Part shown: one piece after another, positions 3,773 to 32,000 of the stretch
How the letters are laid out: each line of letters starts with the position of its first letter
How positions within the stretch are numbered: the stretch's first letter is position 1
Origin: Candidatus Velamenicoccus archaeovorus
GTDB taxonomy: Bacteria > Omnitrophota > Gorgyraeia > Velamenicoccales > Velamenicoccaceae
Direction: 5' to 3'
DNA: 32,000 bases
Assembly: GCF_004102945.1 (NCBI RefSeq)
Contig: NZ_CP019384.1
Span: 1,080,001 to 1,112,000, forward strand
Translations under genes and position numbers: made by a program
Notes under the pieces: model-generated
What the model was told of the DNA's origin: nothing
Database searches by the model: none
The model's input: the letters and a program-made list of their open reading frames with translations, nothing else

Positions 3773-3845
3773 TGGTGGCGGAGAGTGCCTGCCGGCAGGC
3801 AGGGATTTTTGAGCACCTCAATATCCCATCCAGCGAAATCCCGCC
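3773..3845 (-). pseudogene. Decayed tRNA-like remnant (acceptor plus T-arm) interrupted by a 16-bp GC palindrome
   Basis: The minus strand reads GGCGGGA...GGTGCTCAAAAATCC[CTGCCTGCCGGCAGGC]ACTCTCCGCCACCA. Removing the bracketed 16 nt leaves AAATCCACTCTCCGCCACCA, identical to the 3' end of the intact tRNA at 3911-3987. It is about 57 nt without the insert, too short to function. Confidence 0.45.
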
Positions 3846-8949: not shown

Positions 8950-9032
8950 CGTCGCACCCAAAATCTTGGAACAGCCATCAATTGTACTGTTTAAATGTCA
9001 AGCCTACACCCACAACCAAAATAACCAATCAC

Positions 9033-9052
9033 CCTGCCTGCCGGCAGGCAGG
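9033..9052. repeat. 20-bp perfect GC palindrome CCTGCCTGCCGGCAGGCAGG
   Basis: Self-complementary. Its 16-nt core CCTGCCGGCAGGCAGG recurs at 3788-3803, where it interrupts a tRNA-derived sequence. It sits in the AT-rich RACo/cooC spacer. Confidence 0.8.
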
Positions 9053-11115: not shown

Positions 11116-11124
11116 CGTCAAACC

Positions 11125-11196
11125 CCTAATCCAAAAAGGACAGGTCTCCGCATGGCTCCTCCGATAGAATCGGGTAACCACATAAAAGAGAACCTA
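11125..11196 (-). repeat. Two-hairpin 'Y' module filling the acsC/RACo spacer
   Basis: Minus strand: TAGGTTCTC-[long loop with TTTTATGTGGTTA...CCATGC]-GGAGACCT-GTCC-TTTTT-GGAT-TAGG. This is homologous to the modules at 21958-22050 and 29706-30095. Its TAG head is the acsC stop codon. TAGG occurs at both ends. Confidence 0.6.
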
Positions 11197-15614: not shown

Positions 15615-15741
15615 CGCCTCTGGCGGAATTAACTCCGAGTGTAGCTGAAAAATTTCTGGTTGCCCGTCCGAGCTCTGCGAGGACTGGTCGCAGGCATAAA
15701 TTGTCAAGATGCTTACACGGGGAACAACGTCTCTTTAGATT
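15615..15741 (+). repeat. 127-bp repeat-element segment bounded by a 10-bp direct repeat TCCTTAATTC; contains the conserved 'X' box
   Basis: TCCTTAATTC occurs at 15605-15614 and 15742-15751. The interior holds hairpin TTAATTCCGCC-TCT-GGCGGAATTAA, which uses the left repeat. It also holds box 15662-15747, homologous to 29969-30048 (first 32 nt 31/32 identical). Confidence 0.7.
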
Positions 15742-20411: not shown

Positions 20412-20417
20412 ATTTTC

Positions 20418-21857
20418 TTATAGTTTCGGTTTTTGTTTATGCCAGGAAGTGCCCTGCTCATAATGGAAGGCCGCCCGGTAAAGGTCTGTCTCCCCAAAAG
20501 GCCGGCCGATCAGCTGCATGCCTACCGGCAGGCCGGATCCGGTAAAACCGCAAGGAACGGATATCGCGGGGACGCCTGCCAGATTGACGGAAATCGTATA
20601 GATGTCGGACAGATACATGCTCAAGGGGTTATCCATCTTTTCGCCGATCCTGAAGGCCGGCGTCGGAGACGTCGGCGTCAGCACCACGTCGTATTCCTTA
20701 AAGACCTTGTCGAAATCTTCCCTGATCAGCCTCCTGACCCTCGAAGCACGCAGATAATAAGCGTCATAATAACCGCTGGAGAGAACATATGTCCCGAGGA
20801 TCAGGCGGCGCTTGGCTTCCGCCCCGAATCCTTTATCGCGCGTTTCCTTATACATGCCCACAAGGGCCGATTCGTCCTTAGACCCTCCTGTCTGCCTTAG
20901 ACCGTATTGGACGCCGTCGAAACGCGCCAAATTCGAAGACGCTTCAGCCGTCGCAATGATGTAATACACCGCCACCGCATAATCCGTGTGGGGCAGGCGG
21001 ACTTCACCGAAACGCGCCCCAAGAGATTCCAGCTTTGCTTTCGCCTCCATCATCGCCTGCCGGACATCGGCGTCCATGCCTTCAACAAAATACTCCCGCG
21101 GGATGGCGACGCGCAAACCGCGGATGTCTTTCTCCATCTCGGCCAGATAATCCGGGACATCCATGTGGGCCGATGTCGCGTCGCGATCGTCATGCCCGGC
21201 AATAACACCCAGGACCAGGGCGTTATCCCGAACGTCCTTGGTGATAGGGCCGATCTGGTCGAGACTGGATGCAAAAGCAACCAGGCCGTAGCGCGACACA
21301 CGACCGTAGGTCGGTTTCATGCCGACGACGCCGCACAACGACGCCGGCTGACGGATGGAACCGCCCGTATCCGACCCCAGCGCGACGATCGCTTCGTCAG
21401 CCACCACGCAGGCACAGGAGCCGCCGCTCGAACCGCCGGGGACGCAATCCAGGTTCCACGGATTTCTCGTCGGATGAAAACAGGACGTTTCGCAGGAAGA
21501 ACCGAAAGCAAACTCGTCCATATTGGCCTTCCCCATGATCGAAGCCCCGCTTTTTTTAAGCCTCTCGACCACTGTCGCGTCATAGGGCGCGACAAACCCT
21601 TTAAGGATCTTCGAACAGCATTCTGTCAGGTCTCCCTGGCTGCAGATGTTGTCTTTGATGACGACAGGGATGCCTTTGAGGGCGCCGGCCGCGGCCCCAT
21701 CGCGATATTCGAAAGACGGCGGACGCGCAAAGGCCATGACTTTTTTCTCAACGGCTTCATAACGGCCGCGAAGGTCCGCCAGGATATCCTGCGGTTTGAC
21801 TGAACCGCGGTCCAGCCGCGACCTCAATTCCAGGGCCGTCAATGTATGCAGATTCAT
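20418..21857 (-). CDS. gatA: Glu-tRNA(Gln) amidotransferase subunit A
   Basis: 479 aa with the amidase signature GGSSGGSCACV...GSDTGGSIRQPA. ATG start verified at 21857. Confidence 0.95.
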   Translation of the reverse strand: MNLHTLTALELRSRLDRGSVKPQDILADLRGRYEAVEKKVMAFARPPSFEYRDGAAAGALKGIPVVIKDNICSQGDLTECCSKILKGFVAPYDATVVERLKKSGASIMGKANMDEFAFGSSCETSCFHPTRNPWNLDCVPGGSSGGSCACVVADEAIVALGSDTGGSIRQPASLCGVVGMKPTYGRVSRYGLVAFASSLDQIGPITKDVRDNALVLGVIAGHDDRDATSAHMDVPDYLAEMEKDIRGLRVAIPREYFVEGMDADVRQAMMEAKAKLESLGARFGEVRLPHTDYAVAVYYIIATAEASSNLARFDGVQYGLRQTGGSKDESALVGMYKETRDKGFGAEAKRRLILGTYVLSSGYYDAYYLRASRVRRLIREDFDKVFKEYDVVLTPTSPTPAFRIGEKMDNPLSMYLSDIYTISVNLAGVPAISVPCGFTGSGLPVGMQLIGRPFGETDLYRAAFHYEQGTSWHKQKPKL

Positions 21858-22054
21858 CCCGTTAGACCTCCCGAGTATGCGGATCTTCCAACAAAAATCG
21901 TTTTCTTCACGGCATTTTATGCTTGAGTTACATCAAAACGTCAGACGCAAGGTCTAACCCAGAAAGGGTAGGTCTCCGCATACCATATTAGAGGAGGACC
22001 TAACCGAGAAAAGGCAGGCCTCCGCATACCGCACACTAAGGAGGGCCTAACGGG
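21858..22054. mobile_element. 197-bp non-autonomous (MITE/REPIN-like) element with terminal inverted repeats and a 6-bp target-site duplication, inserted at the gatC/gatA junction
   Basis: The TIRs are CCCGTTAGACCTCCC (21858-21872) and GGAGGGCCTAACGGG (22040-22054). They match 12/15 as inverted repeats, and the outer 8 nt are identical. The flanking direct repeat is ATTCAT at 21852-21857 and 22055-22060. The interior holds two tandem Y modules (21958-22003, 22004-22050) and a large terminal hairpin. Confidence 0.8.
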
Positions 22055-22056
22055 AT

Positions 22057-22344
22057 TCATTCAATCACCTTGGGCACTTTATAGAACTGCCCCTGCGCGG
22101 CCGGCGCGATCTTCAGGACCGCCTGTGGATCGATGGATGGCGACACGCTGTCTTTCCGATAGACGTTCTTCAAGTCAAGAACGTGCGTCATCGGATCAAC
22201 ACGACTGACATCTACGGTTTTAAGCTTATCCACATATTCCAGAATGCTTTCCAGCTGACCCTGAAAATGCGATATTTCTTCCTCTGTCAATCCCAGCCTT
22301 GCCAGATGGGCTATGTGCTTGACGTCATCACGGGATATGGGCAT
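22057..22344 (-). CDS. gatC: Asp/Glu-tRNA(Asn/Gln) amidotransferase subunit C
   Basis: 95 aa. ISRDDVKHIAHLARLGLTEEE...F..QL..IL.YV..L matches GatC. Confidence 0.92.
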   Translation of the reverse strand: MPISRDDVKHIAHLARLGLTEEEISHFQGQLESILEYVDKLKTVDVSRVDPMTHVLDLKNVYRKDSVSPSIDPQAVLKIAPAAQGQFYKVPKVIE

Positions 22345-22422
22345 TTCTCCCTCTCGGTTTTAACCTTCGCGAAACAAACACAGAAAGATTTATATTATCA
22401 TTGACGCCGGAAAAAGTAAACC

Positions 22423-22449
22423 CCGTTAGAGAATTTCGTTCTGTAACGG
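22423..22449 (-). terminator. Candidate intrinsic terminator after rsmA
   Basis: Minus-strand RNA is CCGUUACAGAA-CGAAA-UUCUCUAACGG (10 bp plus 1 mismatch), followed by GGUUUACUUUUUCC. It lies 38 nt after the rsmA stop. The stem shares the CCGTTA...TAACGG ends seen in other hairpins here. Confidence 0.45.
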
Positions 22450-22487
22450 CTTGCGACGCCGCTGGCATGGAACACGGCCTCTTAAAG

Positions 22488-25199: not shown

Positions 25200-25237
25200 A
25201 TGATTTATGGAATCTATATATAGATTCCATAAATCAT
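25200..25237. repeat. Perfect 38-bp AT-rich palindrome ATGATTTATGGAATCTATA|TATAGATTCCATAAATCAT
   Basis: The 19-nt arms are exactly reverse-complementary with no spacer (checked base by base). It ends 21 nt upstream of the surA-like ATG and 13 nt upstream of its AAAGGAGG Shine-Dalgarno. Confidence 0.9.
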
Positions 25238-29583: not shown

Positions 29584-30092
29584 TCCCGAGTCTGCGCAGG
29601 AAATTTTTGCCGACCGGCCAGCTTCGCTGGCCGAGTCGTGGCAAAAATTTACAAGCGTTGAGACGAGGGATAAACAGTTATTCCTTAATCCTGCCTCCGG
29701 CGGGATTAGACCCTTCGCTTATTTGGTATTGCGAAGGTCTACCCCCTTGTGGGGTTAACTCCTCCACCCGGCCTCATCGGATGGCCGCACCTTGCCTCAT
29801 TCGGACGGCAAGTGCGCCACCTTCTGTGGCGGTGTGCCGCTTTCTGCTTGCCTGCTATGGCAGGCAAAGCGTATCTTGGAAATATCTGGCTGCACCTGGC
29901 CCCATCTGAAGGGCCAGTGTTCCGCTTCCTGCGGAACCCGCCCCGTTACAAATTGCATTTGTAACGGGGCCCGTCCGAGTTCTGCGAGGACTGGTCGCAG
30001 ACAGATATTGACAAGATGTTTACGCAAGGAGTGACGTATATTTCCTTAGGCCCTTCCCTTATGTGGTATGGGGAAGGCCTACCCCTTGTGGG
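29584..30092 (+). repeat. 509-bp composite of nested or tandem hairpin repeats between yajC and secDF, bounded by a 12-bp direct repeat
   Basis: TTACAAAATCAA occurs at 29572-29583 and 30093-30104. The contents in order are:
- Diverged X copy 29584-29682, enclosing hairpin 29601-29650.
- Hairpin TTAATCCTGCC-TCC-GGCGGGATTA (~29687-29709).
- Y1 at 29706-29757.
- Six back-to-back GC hairpins at 29769-29937.
- A perfect 14-bp-stem hairpin at 29940-29970.
- X box at 29969-30048.
- Y2 at 30046-30095. Confidence 0.8.
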
Positions 30093-30788: not shown

Positions 30789-30864
30789 CTTGTTCCGGGT
30801 ACCTCTAAGCGGTCCCAACACTCACCGCCCTAAAGGGCGGAGCTTTAGGCCGCGCAGAGTAAAC

Positions 30865-30966
30865 CACGTTAGAAAATAATGCTGCGTCCTTGCGCACCAC
30901 AAACCTAACGTGTTGCCTCATATAAAATGATCCCTTCCCCCGTTCGCCATATTATTTTCTAACGGG
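30865..30966. mobile_element. 102-bp MITE-like element with 16-bp TIRs and a 6-bp target-site duplication, overlapping the trpE stop codon
   Basis: The TIRs are CACGTTAGAAAATAAT (30865-30880) and ATTATTTTCTAACGGG (30951-30966), matching 15/16 as inverted repeats. The flanking direct repeat is GTAAAC at 30859-30864 and 30967-30972. The terminal octamer C(C/A)CGTTAG is shared with the gatC/gatA element. Confidence 0.75.
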
Positions 30967-32000
30967 GTAAACATAGGCCGCGGCCTCCAACAGCGCCTTG
31001 GCCTTATTGACAGTCTCTTGATATTCTTTGGCAGGATCGGAATCGCTGACGATGCCCGCCCCCGCCTGGATATACAGGTCGTTATTTTTGATCAGCATGG
31101 TGCGGATTATTATACAAGAGTCGAGATTTCCTGAAAAGCTGAAATAACAAACGGCGCCGCCGTAAGGCCCCCGGCGCGTCGTCTCGATCTCATCGATGAT
31201 CTCCATGGCGCGGATCTTGGGCGCGCCCGACAGTGTCCCTGCGGGGAAACAGGCGATCAGGGCATCCAGGGCGCTTTTGCCCTTCTTAAGCCTGCCGGTG
31301 ACGTTGCTGACGATATGCATGACATGGGAATATTTTTCAACAGTCATAAACTCGTCGACCTTCACCGAACCGTAATCGCAGACACGACCCAGGTCGTTGC
31401 GGCCCAGATCGACCAGCATCAGGTGCTCCGCCTTCTCCTTGGCGTCGTTCAACAATTCTTTAGCCAGCTTTGCGTCTTCCTGCTCATTGGTCCCTCTGGG
31501 CCTGGTCCCGGCGATCGGCCTGGTCTCGACGATGCCGTTTTCGCAGCGCACCAGAAGCTCCGGCGATGACCCCACCAGCACAAGACCCCCGAGCTTCAAA
31601 TAAAACATATACGGCGATGGGTTAATGCCCCTCAAGGAACGATAGATGTTGAAAGGCTTCTGGTGAAGCTTCATATGAAAACGCTGCGACAAGACAGTCT
31701 GGATGATGTCGCCGCACCGGATATACTCCTTGGCCCTGCGGACACCCTCCTGGAATCCGGCCCTGCCGACATTAGACACGATGGCCGGCTTCTGTAATCC
31801 TTTGGCCGGTTCTGCGTCCATCTTAAGGGGCCGGCCCAGCTTAACGACGAGCGCGTCGATCCTGTTTAAAGCGTTCTTGTAAGCGCGCCGGAGAGCCCGG
31901 GGCGTCTTTGCATCCAAGACGCAGTTGGCAACGATCTTGATCCTGCGGTTGACATGGTCGAAGACGATAAGGGTTTCCGCCAACATCAACACGCAGTCCG
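30952..32000 (-). CDS. trpE: Anthranilate synthase component I, C-terminal chorismate-binding part (gene continues past the right edge)
   Basis: NPSPYMFYL, VGSSPE, RPIAGTRPRG, EHLMLVDLGRNDLGRV, FPAGTLSGAPKIRAMEIIDE.E...RG.YGGAV and IRT...AGAGIVSDSDP..E..ET.NKA are present. The reading frame stays open to position 32000. TrpE is favoured over PabB by the PYMFYL block. Confidence 0.8.
   Translation of the reverse strand, partial: DCVLMLAETLIVFDHVNRRIKIVANCVLDAKTPRALRRAYKNALNRIDALVVKLGRPLKMDAEPAKGLQKPAIVSNVGRAGFQEGVRRAKEYIRCGDIIQTVLSQRFHMKLHQKPFNIYRSLRGINPSPYMFYLKLGGLVLVGSSPELLVRCENGIVETRPIAGTRPRGTNEQEDAKLAKELLNDAKEKAEHLMLVDLGRNDLGRVCDYGSVKVDEFMTVEKYSHVMHIVSNVTGRLKKGKSALDALIACFPAGTLSGAPKIRAMEIIDEIETTRRGPYGGAVCYFSFSGNLDSCIIIRTMLIKNNDLYIQAGAGIVSDSDPAKEYQETVNKAKALLEAAAYVYPVRK

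Follow-up and report, generated by a model that had tools for sequence, protein, structure and literature searches.

A modular hairpin element between gatC and gatA in Candidatus Velamenicoccus archaeovorus and related Omnitrophota

How does a spacer of 199 nt come to stand between gatC and gatA, two essential genes whose stop and start codons can share the four letters ATGA? The question is raised by a 32,000-nt stretch of the Candidatus Velamenicoccus archaeovorus genome (contig NZ_CP019384.1, positions 1,080,001 to 1,112,000; hereafter the window), in which the open reading frame (ORF) list places gatC (95 aa, 22057..22344, stop TGA at 22059-22057) and gatA (479 aa, 20418..21857) on the minus strand, separated by positions 22056-21858. 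The GatC protein of the window is identical to the Ca. Velamenicoccus archaeovorus GatC QAT17135.1, GatA is 100% identical to QAT17134.1 of the same organism, and the Pfam GatC domain is present in the orthologous loci. We propose, with a probability of roughly two in three, that the spacer is a non-autonomous DNA element that resembles MITEs (miniature transposable elements with inverted repeats) and has a modular build like that of BOX elements.

Filled and empty gatC-gatA junctions

On the minus strand the junction reads ...GTG ATT GAA TGA AT, then CCCGTTAGGCCCTCC...GGGAGGTCTAACGGG, then ATG AAT CTG CAT. The left copy of the hexamer ATGAAT (22055..22060) holds the gatC TGA and an overlapping ATG, and is the single copy found in empty sites; the right copy (21852..21857) forms codons 1-2 of gatA. 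A sequence-only reading of this DNA had described the hexamer on both flanks of an element (seen at 22060-22055 and 21857-21852), the upstream copy providing the gatC TGA and the downstream copy the ATG-AAT of gatA, and had called the outer ends of the element inverted and identical. Our reading of the junction agrees on each point, the edges CCCGTTAG / CTAACGGG of the 197-nt segment between the two hexamers being an exact inverted match. The left ATG retains the native start context of gatA with the Shine-Dalgarno-like GGTGAT of the gatC 3' end directly upstream, and opens a decoy small ORF of 39 codons (21941..22060, minus strand; MNPVRPSLVCGMRRPAFSRLGPPLIWYAETYPFWVRPCV followed by a stop).

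The same reading had expected relatives to show an empty site with an ATGA overlap, and such sites were found. Relatives were picked as close GatC/GatA matches and their junctions read directly. The empty junction is GTGATTGAATGAATCTACAT in L007 (also given as GATTGAATGAATCTA, GAATGAATCT), GTGATTGAATGAACCTGCAT in L011-L013, GTGATCGAATGAACCTGCAT in L032, which shares the 4-nt overlap with about 15 contigs of the same or near-identical GatC, and GATCGAATGAAACTT in L028/L029, an outgroup at 81% GatA identity; among L011, L032 and L028 the empty site reads GAATGAAC/GAATGAAA. Altogether, more than 20 related contigs have GA-ATGA-A(T/C/A) at the junction, i.e. a 4-nt overlap, and a spacing of -4 is found in 24 of the 29 contigs of our local tree, including the outgroup. 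By contrast, a 199-nt spacer is present in the window, L001/L002 and L008/L009/L010/L018, and a 106-nt spacer free of the hairpin units described below in L031 and L033, two separate metagenome-assembled genomes. The sole difference between filled and empty alleles is the element together with the duplicated bases. As the insert occurs in only some lineages and exactly at the point of overlap, the comparison identifies it as a genuine insertion into the ATGA overlap and as the derived state. Owing to the duplication, gatC regains its TGA and gatA its ATG, so that both essential genes are left intact.

Tandem and inverted repeats can mislead assemblers, and two contigs, L003 and L010, do break within the element, so that an assembly artefact has to be considered, as the sequence-only reading had done. 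However, a closed 1.97-Mb genome and six or more independent assemblies from four sources (NCBI, Logan, ENA and JGI; L001, L002, L003, L008, L009, L010 and L018) have the identical sequence, which effectively rules out an artefact and leaves it a negligible probability.

How many bases were duplicated is best judged from L031 and L033, which match their empty sister strains with 99.7% identity upstream and 97.7-98% downstream. Their left copy is ATGAAT, their right copy ATGAAC, and the empty sisters have ATGAAC. The comparison thus sets the duplicated stretch at no more than 5 bp (ATGAA), shorter than the 6 bp of the sequence-only reading, for which a later AAT>AAC change would have to be assumed. 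Counting the AT as part of either inverted end (ATCCCGTTAG/CTAACGGGAT) leaves a duplication of 2 bp (GA), which is the probable length; this parse, with ends of 10 nt, fits all filled and empty sequences with zero added mutations and is the most economical. Under every parse junction bases are doubled, as expected of a MITE, with a length that is ambiguous between 2 and 5 bp.

Architecture of the element and its hairpin units

The element consists of two end modules that flank an internal module present in varying tandem number, i.e. a build of the BOX type. The left end, (AT)CCCGTTAGGCC (22044..22056, minus strand), and the right end, GGGAGGTCTAACGGG(AT) (21856..21872, minus strand), contain an inverted repeat of 13 nt with 92% identity (21856-21868 / 22044-22056) that takes in the adjoining AT on each side, and are paired with each other in minimum free energy folds. 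As in the terminal inverted repeats of MITEs, ATCCCGTTAG / CTAACGGGAT match perfectly along 10 nt in the window, L008 and L031, and ATCCCGTTAGA is present at both ends in L008 and L031. Identical in the window, L001, L008, L031 and L033, the right end carries GGGAGG (21872-21867), a Shine-Dalgarno-like motif 8 nt ahead of the gatA ATG. Together with their interior (21873..21957, minus strand) the inverted ends ATCCCGTTAG...CTAACGGGAT form a core of 104 nt, and when the element was compared with all loci by blastn, its positions 105-197 matched gatC/gatA sites only.

Behind the left end sit two hairpin units in direct repeat, unit 1 (47 nt, 22004..22050, minus strand, TTAGGCCCTCC-loop-GGAGGCCTGCCTTTTCTCGG, nhmmer E = 8.8e-10) and unit 2 (46 nt, 21958..22003, minus strand, TTAGGTCCTCC-loop-GGAGACCTACCCTTTCTGGG, E = 1.3e-12). 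Thus, of the mobile hairpin element in the sequence-only reading the insertion stands, and the single simple hairpin gives way to a left half made of two tandem 46/47-nt units. Starting from the left ATG, the decoy ORF covers the left arm and the two units; its L031 counterpart, in the same frame, is 8 codons long and closes with the identical GTC TGA. At 21958-21940 lies a weak hairpin of terminator type, GTTAGACCTTGCGTCTGAC + GTTTTGATGT.

The number of units is two in the window, L001 and L008, one in L003 (a 562-nt short-read contig), which lacks unit 2, and zero in L031/L033, which lack both. The difference between the 199-nt and the 106-nt spacer is exactly 93 nt, i.e. two units, flanked by GTTAG repeats. 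In L008 the first slot is occupied by another unit type, with the stem AGACCCTTCGC/GCGAAGGTCT versus AGGCCCTCC/GGAGGCCT, and as this type recurs in L027, module exchange and not point mutation accounts for it.

The predicted RNA fold of 21840-22075 has -85.1 kcal/mol versus -65.6 +/- 4.5 kcal/mol for shuffled sequences (z = -4.3; none of 200 shuffles as good), with z-scores of -4.3 to -4.7 across the element forms tested, i.e. the window and variant-unit forms, and pairing of the left with the right end is predicted for the 2-unit, variant-unit and 0-unit forms alike. With 104-197 nt and the 39-codon decoy as its sole ORF content, the element has the small size of a MITE. A promoter scan of the element region gave no sigma-70-like promoter, and in a search of Rfam 15 only one tRNA of the window reached the gathering score, with 21780-22130 lacking a match even at E <= 10.

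The units are not confined to gatC-gatA. Intergenic tandem arrays occur at at least ten further Omnitrophota loci, and scans for the exact pattern found 45-47-nt unit arrays in two other genomes and 13 metagenome stretches; a 14th stretch was discarded as a chance match within a gene. A unit profile hidden Markov model run with nhmmer places five units at four loci of the window (11131-11153, two at 21958-22050, 29706-29744 and 30046-30091) and none in the syntenic DNA of L007, L011 and L028. At a second locus of the family (11116..11193, minus strand), between the cdhD stop and the start of a RACo-like gene, the window has one degenerate unit versus four tandem units in L008/L015. Two of the five units, within 29706..30091 on the plus strand (29706-29744; 30046-30091) and opposite in orientation to the genes, flank the yajC-secD spacer, which is rich in hairpins and exceeds that of L008 by about 420 nt.

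When 21 distinct units are compared, 94.6% of cells show pairing in the proposed hairpin and 6 of 13 pairs are altered on both sides, as against pairing in 30-61% of cells and 0-2 doubly changed pairs in shifted controls, with cell counts that represent only about five unit types. This pattern of substitutions indicates that the hairpin, as DNA or RNA, is the conserved feature of the units. Moreover, a larger composite occurs at at least five unrelated loci, where a 5' hairpin TCGAGCCGCAGCATGCGGCGAAGAT abuts the stop codon and is followed by 2-5 units of mixed type and a long 3' hairpin; one composite array lies directly downstream of a tRNA-Arg gene (L017:1263-1337). The 3'-end motif AGATTCATT of the composite arrays was considered as an att-like core matching ATGAATCT at gatA and rejected, as the other end of the arrays has no matching copy. 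Likewise, a role of the arrays as CsrA-sponge-like RNA via GGA loop motifs was dismissed, many units having GGU instead. Some arrays adjoin another hairpin repeat, GGCCATAACTTACGG...CCGTAAGTTATAAGGCC (L005:7540-7640, L019:10850-10880 and L021:515-700, all in reverse-oriented coordinates), which is tandemly doubled in L021. On the minus strand of L008 (20937-21167) a 76-aa protein with a 15-aa repeat (AQKGQVSASHIEEDL) is annotated, which is an antisense reading of the four-unit array at the cdhD/RACo-like junction and hence a spurious gene. We have here a modular hairpin-repeat family in Velamenicoccus-like Omnitrophota that is previously undescribed: the literature on Omnitrophota, including MITE and OP3 LiM topics, yielded no description of these repeats, and that on MITEs in translationally coupled junctions and on REP effects near stop codons nothing usable.

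Among known systems, BOX elements come closest in build. In these, boxA and boxC surround a variable tandem number of boxB, and boxB folds alone (PMC3049150). Like the BOX elements of S. pneumoniae and S. suis, the gatC-gatA element is composite, non-coding and intergenic, its end modules pair, and its internal module is of the 45-nt class, self-folding and variable in count (here 0, 1 or 2; at the cdhD/RACo-like junction 1 versus 4). Since the internal module folds on its own, gain or loss of copies can leave the fold as a whole undisturbed. The host phylum is, however, unrelated. The likeness claimed is one of architecture only, not membership in the streptococcal family, and unlike boxB the units also form arrays alone with other end modules at many loci and have mixed stem types.

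Correia/NEMIS elements of Neisseria and ERIC/IRU elements of enterobacteria are likewise 100-200 nt long and have inverted ends and a short duplication (PMC3049150). Whereas Correia elements duplicate TA and exist in hundreds of copies, the duplication here ranges from GA to ATGAA and the core was seen at one locus in about 340 kb, and in contrast to both families the gatC-gatA element holds tandem hairpin modules. Correia/NEMIS and ERIC/IRU elements lie between operon genes, give long hairpins when transcribed and can provide signals for expression. Rickettsia palindromic elements insert in frame within coding sequence and are translated into protein. They share with the gatC-gatA element the presence of a palindromic repeat at a potentially lethal site in a way compatible with gene function; the gatC-gatA element, however, lies between two frames and restores a stop and a start.

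The units themselves recall REP/BIME/REPIN sequences, being short imperfect palindromes in extragenic mosaics of both orientations whose stems are preserved by compensatory change. It might therefore be argued that the element belongs to this type and was moved by a RAYT-like enzyme, i.e. an HUH enzyme of the IS200/IS605 type acting on single-stranded hairpins, with an apparent duplication that is in fact element-borne. The core, which consists of two inverted partial units around a loop, is REPIN-like, and small palindromes with CCCGTTA(G/C) ends (L014:215, L022:311-365 and window 29958-29985) lack a consistent flanking duplication. However, no target duplication is known for REP sequences when they move, and the IS200/IS605 family makes none, whereas some target bases at gatC-gatA are doubled under every filled/empty parse. 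Furthermore, no RAYT gene and no Y1/HUH gene was seen among the window proteins, and the Omnitrophota units, unlike REP, stand head to tail with a fixed period of 45-47 nt. We therefore consider a REP-type origin distinctly unlikely.

Origin, spread and possible function

In a tree built from gatC and the first 480 nt of gatA of 29 contigs, L008 branches first, the empty L007 groups with the window and L001, and L031/L033 lie within an otherwise empty clade. With carriers that are not monophyletic, several gains, several precise losses, or recombination are required. Precise loss between short direct repeats flanking a strong palindrome is a known slippage process. Over 20 kb, the window is closer to L008 (89-95%) than to L007 (81-92%); a GatA protein tree that put the empty L007 nearer to the window than the filled L008 was set aside, the region being mosaic over these 20 kb, and for the same reason no firm count of gains and losses is drawn. 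Between L031 and its empty sisters there are 5 differences in 1489 nt upstream; gatA has 19 over its first 406 nt and then 4 over the following ~690 nt, a pattern that looks like a recombination tract beginning at the element. The divergent gatA tract points to an unsampled donor; import of the element from the clade of the window was rejected, since the flanks directly beside the element are of the local type.

This tract also bears on the notion that no transposase was involved, i.e. that template switching or microhomology-mediated repair placed a copy of another hairpin array or locus in the junction, and that homologous recombination later spread the filled allele. Indeed, the core is present at one locus only in the ~340 kb compared, and the units lie between short GTTAG repeats and are swapped in type across loci, implying that recombination and slippage act on these sequences. 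On the other hand, perfect 10-nt inverted ends together with a clean short duplication are a classic transposase signature, and no donor locus was found in the compared DNA, so that we regard a transposase-independent insertion as very improbable.

The proposal that the element is MITE-like nevertheless has several points against it. Apart from the scattered distribution of its carriers, blastn found no second 104-nt core in the ~340 kb of compared DNA, where only the end motif and the hairpin units recur, so that the multi-copy trait of MITEs is unproven, and the one-unit form in L003 may be a collapsed repeat. No partner transposase is known for the element either: no transposase domain was found among the window proteins, and this domain check and the Pfam domains of syntenic genes agree with the sequence-only reading, which had noted that the window encodes no transposase. 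As to the mobility claimed there, the insertion is confirmed and movement is deduced from a single site. For Omnitrophota, the presence of the IS5, IS110 and IS1634 families has been reported (bioRxiv 10.64898/2026.06.07.730766), which may serve as a lead only. Viral contigs scanned with a 22-mer of the core, a degenerate unit pattern and the right end gave 0 matches, and proteins over the core (antisense 53-aa ORF) and the L008 array (76-aa ORF) shared no words with database proteins, which is uninformative.

A further point is conservation. Between carriers the core is 91-98% identical, as compared with 62-82% at flanking third-codon positions, and this would not be expected of a vertically inherited, merely tolerated parasite. 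Thus, where the sequence-only reading had the insertion tolerated, the intact genes agree with it, and the conservation above neutral sites suggests that the element may be more than tolerated. The high identity may reflect either selection on the element or a recent spread of related copies by recombination or by repeated insertion and precise loss at the same site.

Selection would fit a spacer that now serves the gatCAB operon as a cis-acting RNA, whether or not it always did, e.g. as a structured leader setting the GatC:GatA ratio, a standby or binding platform for ribosomes, a site of processing or an internal promoter; an origin as mobile DNA would then be old and secondary. In addition to the conservation of the core, about 45 nt of the interior (AACTCAAGCATAAAATGCCGTGAAGA.AACGATTTTTGTTG) show just one change among all carriers, the GGGAGG-bearing right end does not vary, the fold z-scores are low, and element distances scale with host distances, as under constrained vertical descent. 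Against this, the element is present in some and absent from other strains that are 99.7% identical upstream, implying that it is dispensable; most relatives, including the outgroup, have the plain ATGA overlap; and unit number and type vary freely. The lack of an Rfam match and of a sigma-70-like promoter also speaks against such an RNA, which we consider possible, if rather doubtful.

If the spacer is a MITE-like, BOX-like insertion, how could gatA expression have survived it? The element entered the gatC-gatA ATGA overlap and doubled a small number of its bases, ATGAA at the most or else GA, and its right end supplies GGGAGG, probably a strong ribosome-binding site of its own. In the transcript the paired ends would loop out the 199 nt and set the gatC stop beside the gatA start, the end-to-end stem partly covering the ribosome-binding site of gatA. 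Ribosomes ending gatC 2 nt before the left arm would melt this arm and expose the gatA start; alternatively, ribosomes that start again at the left ATG would open the stem as they translate the 39-codon decoy ORF. In either case translational coupling of gatC and gatA would persist at a distance, and the terminator-like hairpin might reduce read-through. Expression is probably kept up in this way, with a stem and a masking of the ribosome-binding site that are modelled by folding; that the coupling derives solely from folding predictions also weighs against the proposal. Filled and empty alleles may then have moved between related lineages by homologous recombination and/or been changed by precise loss at the short direct repeats, with the number of units changing through slippage or unequal exchange.

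Neighbouring repeats and implications

The gatA-gatB junction harbours a second, unrelated small element of 140-260 nt with inverted ends resembling GTRTCAGAGAGTC / GACTCTYTGATRC, which is present in L001 (4812-4959), L008 (11441-11612), L010, L028 (4450-4705) and L029 and absent from the window (6-nt gap, 20412-20417), L007 (4 nt) and L011 (33 nt). Downstream, L001 shares about 98% identity with the window, so that its gain or loss is recent. Upstream of gatC, the ksgA-gatC spacer (22345-22487) is longer by about 58 nt in the window and L008 than in L007, L011 and L028, and the extra stretch closes with TTCTCTAAC directly before a conserved promoter-like TTTACT-N17-TAATAT. In L033, which carries the 0-unit element, gatA is called in two pieces (1595-2688; 217 aa and 305+ aa) with stops in the translation, which may be due to a frameshift or an assembly error.

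The 11-mer ACCCCGTTAGA, which reads ATCCCGTTAGA in the gatC-gatA element, recurs far above chance, with sites at 22420-22430(+) and 30863-30880 / 30951-30968 of the window and at L014:215-245, L014:12710 and L022:311-365, and at some of them pairs form mini-palindromes of 29-106 nt. The arm at 30951-30968 forms the coding 3' end of a trpE-like gene, and 70 nt further downstream it has an inverted copy. In several cases the 11-mer stands immediately before GGGGTTTACT, which resembles a -35 motif and lies upstream of gatC, rpsP and a csp-like gene, and a solo motif lies directly downstream of a tRNA-Arg gene (L014:12624-12698).

A 75-nt direct repeat with 81% identity lies between tsaD and mgtC (15662-15736) and between yajC and secD (29969-30043); it contains a perfect TTGACA, closes with CGGACGGGC and has no Rfam match, and both spacers are much longer than those of relatives. 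A perfect palindrome of 19+19 nt (ATGATTTATGGAATCTATA|TATAGATTCCATAAATCAT, 25200-25237) is found in an intergenic stretch about 195 nt longer than that of L008, and identical GC-rich palindromes TGCCTGCCGGCAGGCAGG(G) at 3786-3804 and 9032-9052 have a near-copy inside gatA (20519-20536).

What sets the gatC-gatA element apart is the insertion into a stop/start overlap, its presence at the same site in separate lineages and a conservation well above neutral. A 4-nt overlap in an essential operon ought to be a most risky target, yet it takes an insert of 100-200 nt when the duplication restores both signals and the insert brings its own ribosome-binding site. One may go further and regard the element as a site-preferring, self-accommodating insert, whose paired ends act as an RNA bridge that keeps coupling across 100-200 nt and hides the ribosome-binding site until upstream translation, the same site having been repeatedly hit or precisely vacated in separate lineages. 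We would give this extended view rather low odds; if true, it would describe a class of mobile DNA adapted to the stop/start overlaps of essential operons and would account for a core conserved far above neutral expectation. Independently of this, the filled and empty alleles in strains that are ~99% identical constitute a natural pair for comparing translational coupling with a structured spacer. Finally, Omnitrophota are a phylum without cultured isolates, in which the unit repeats break short-read assemblies and spawn spurious gene calls.

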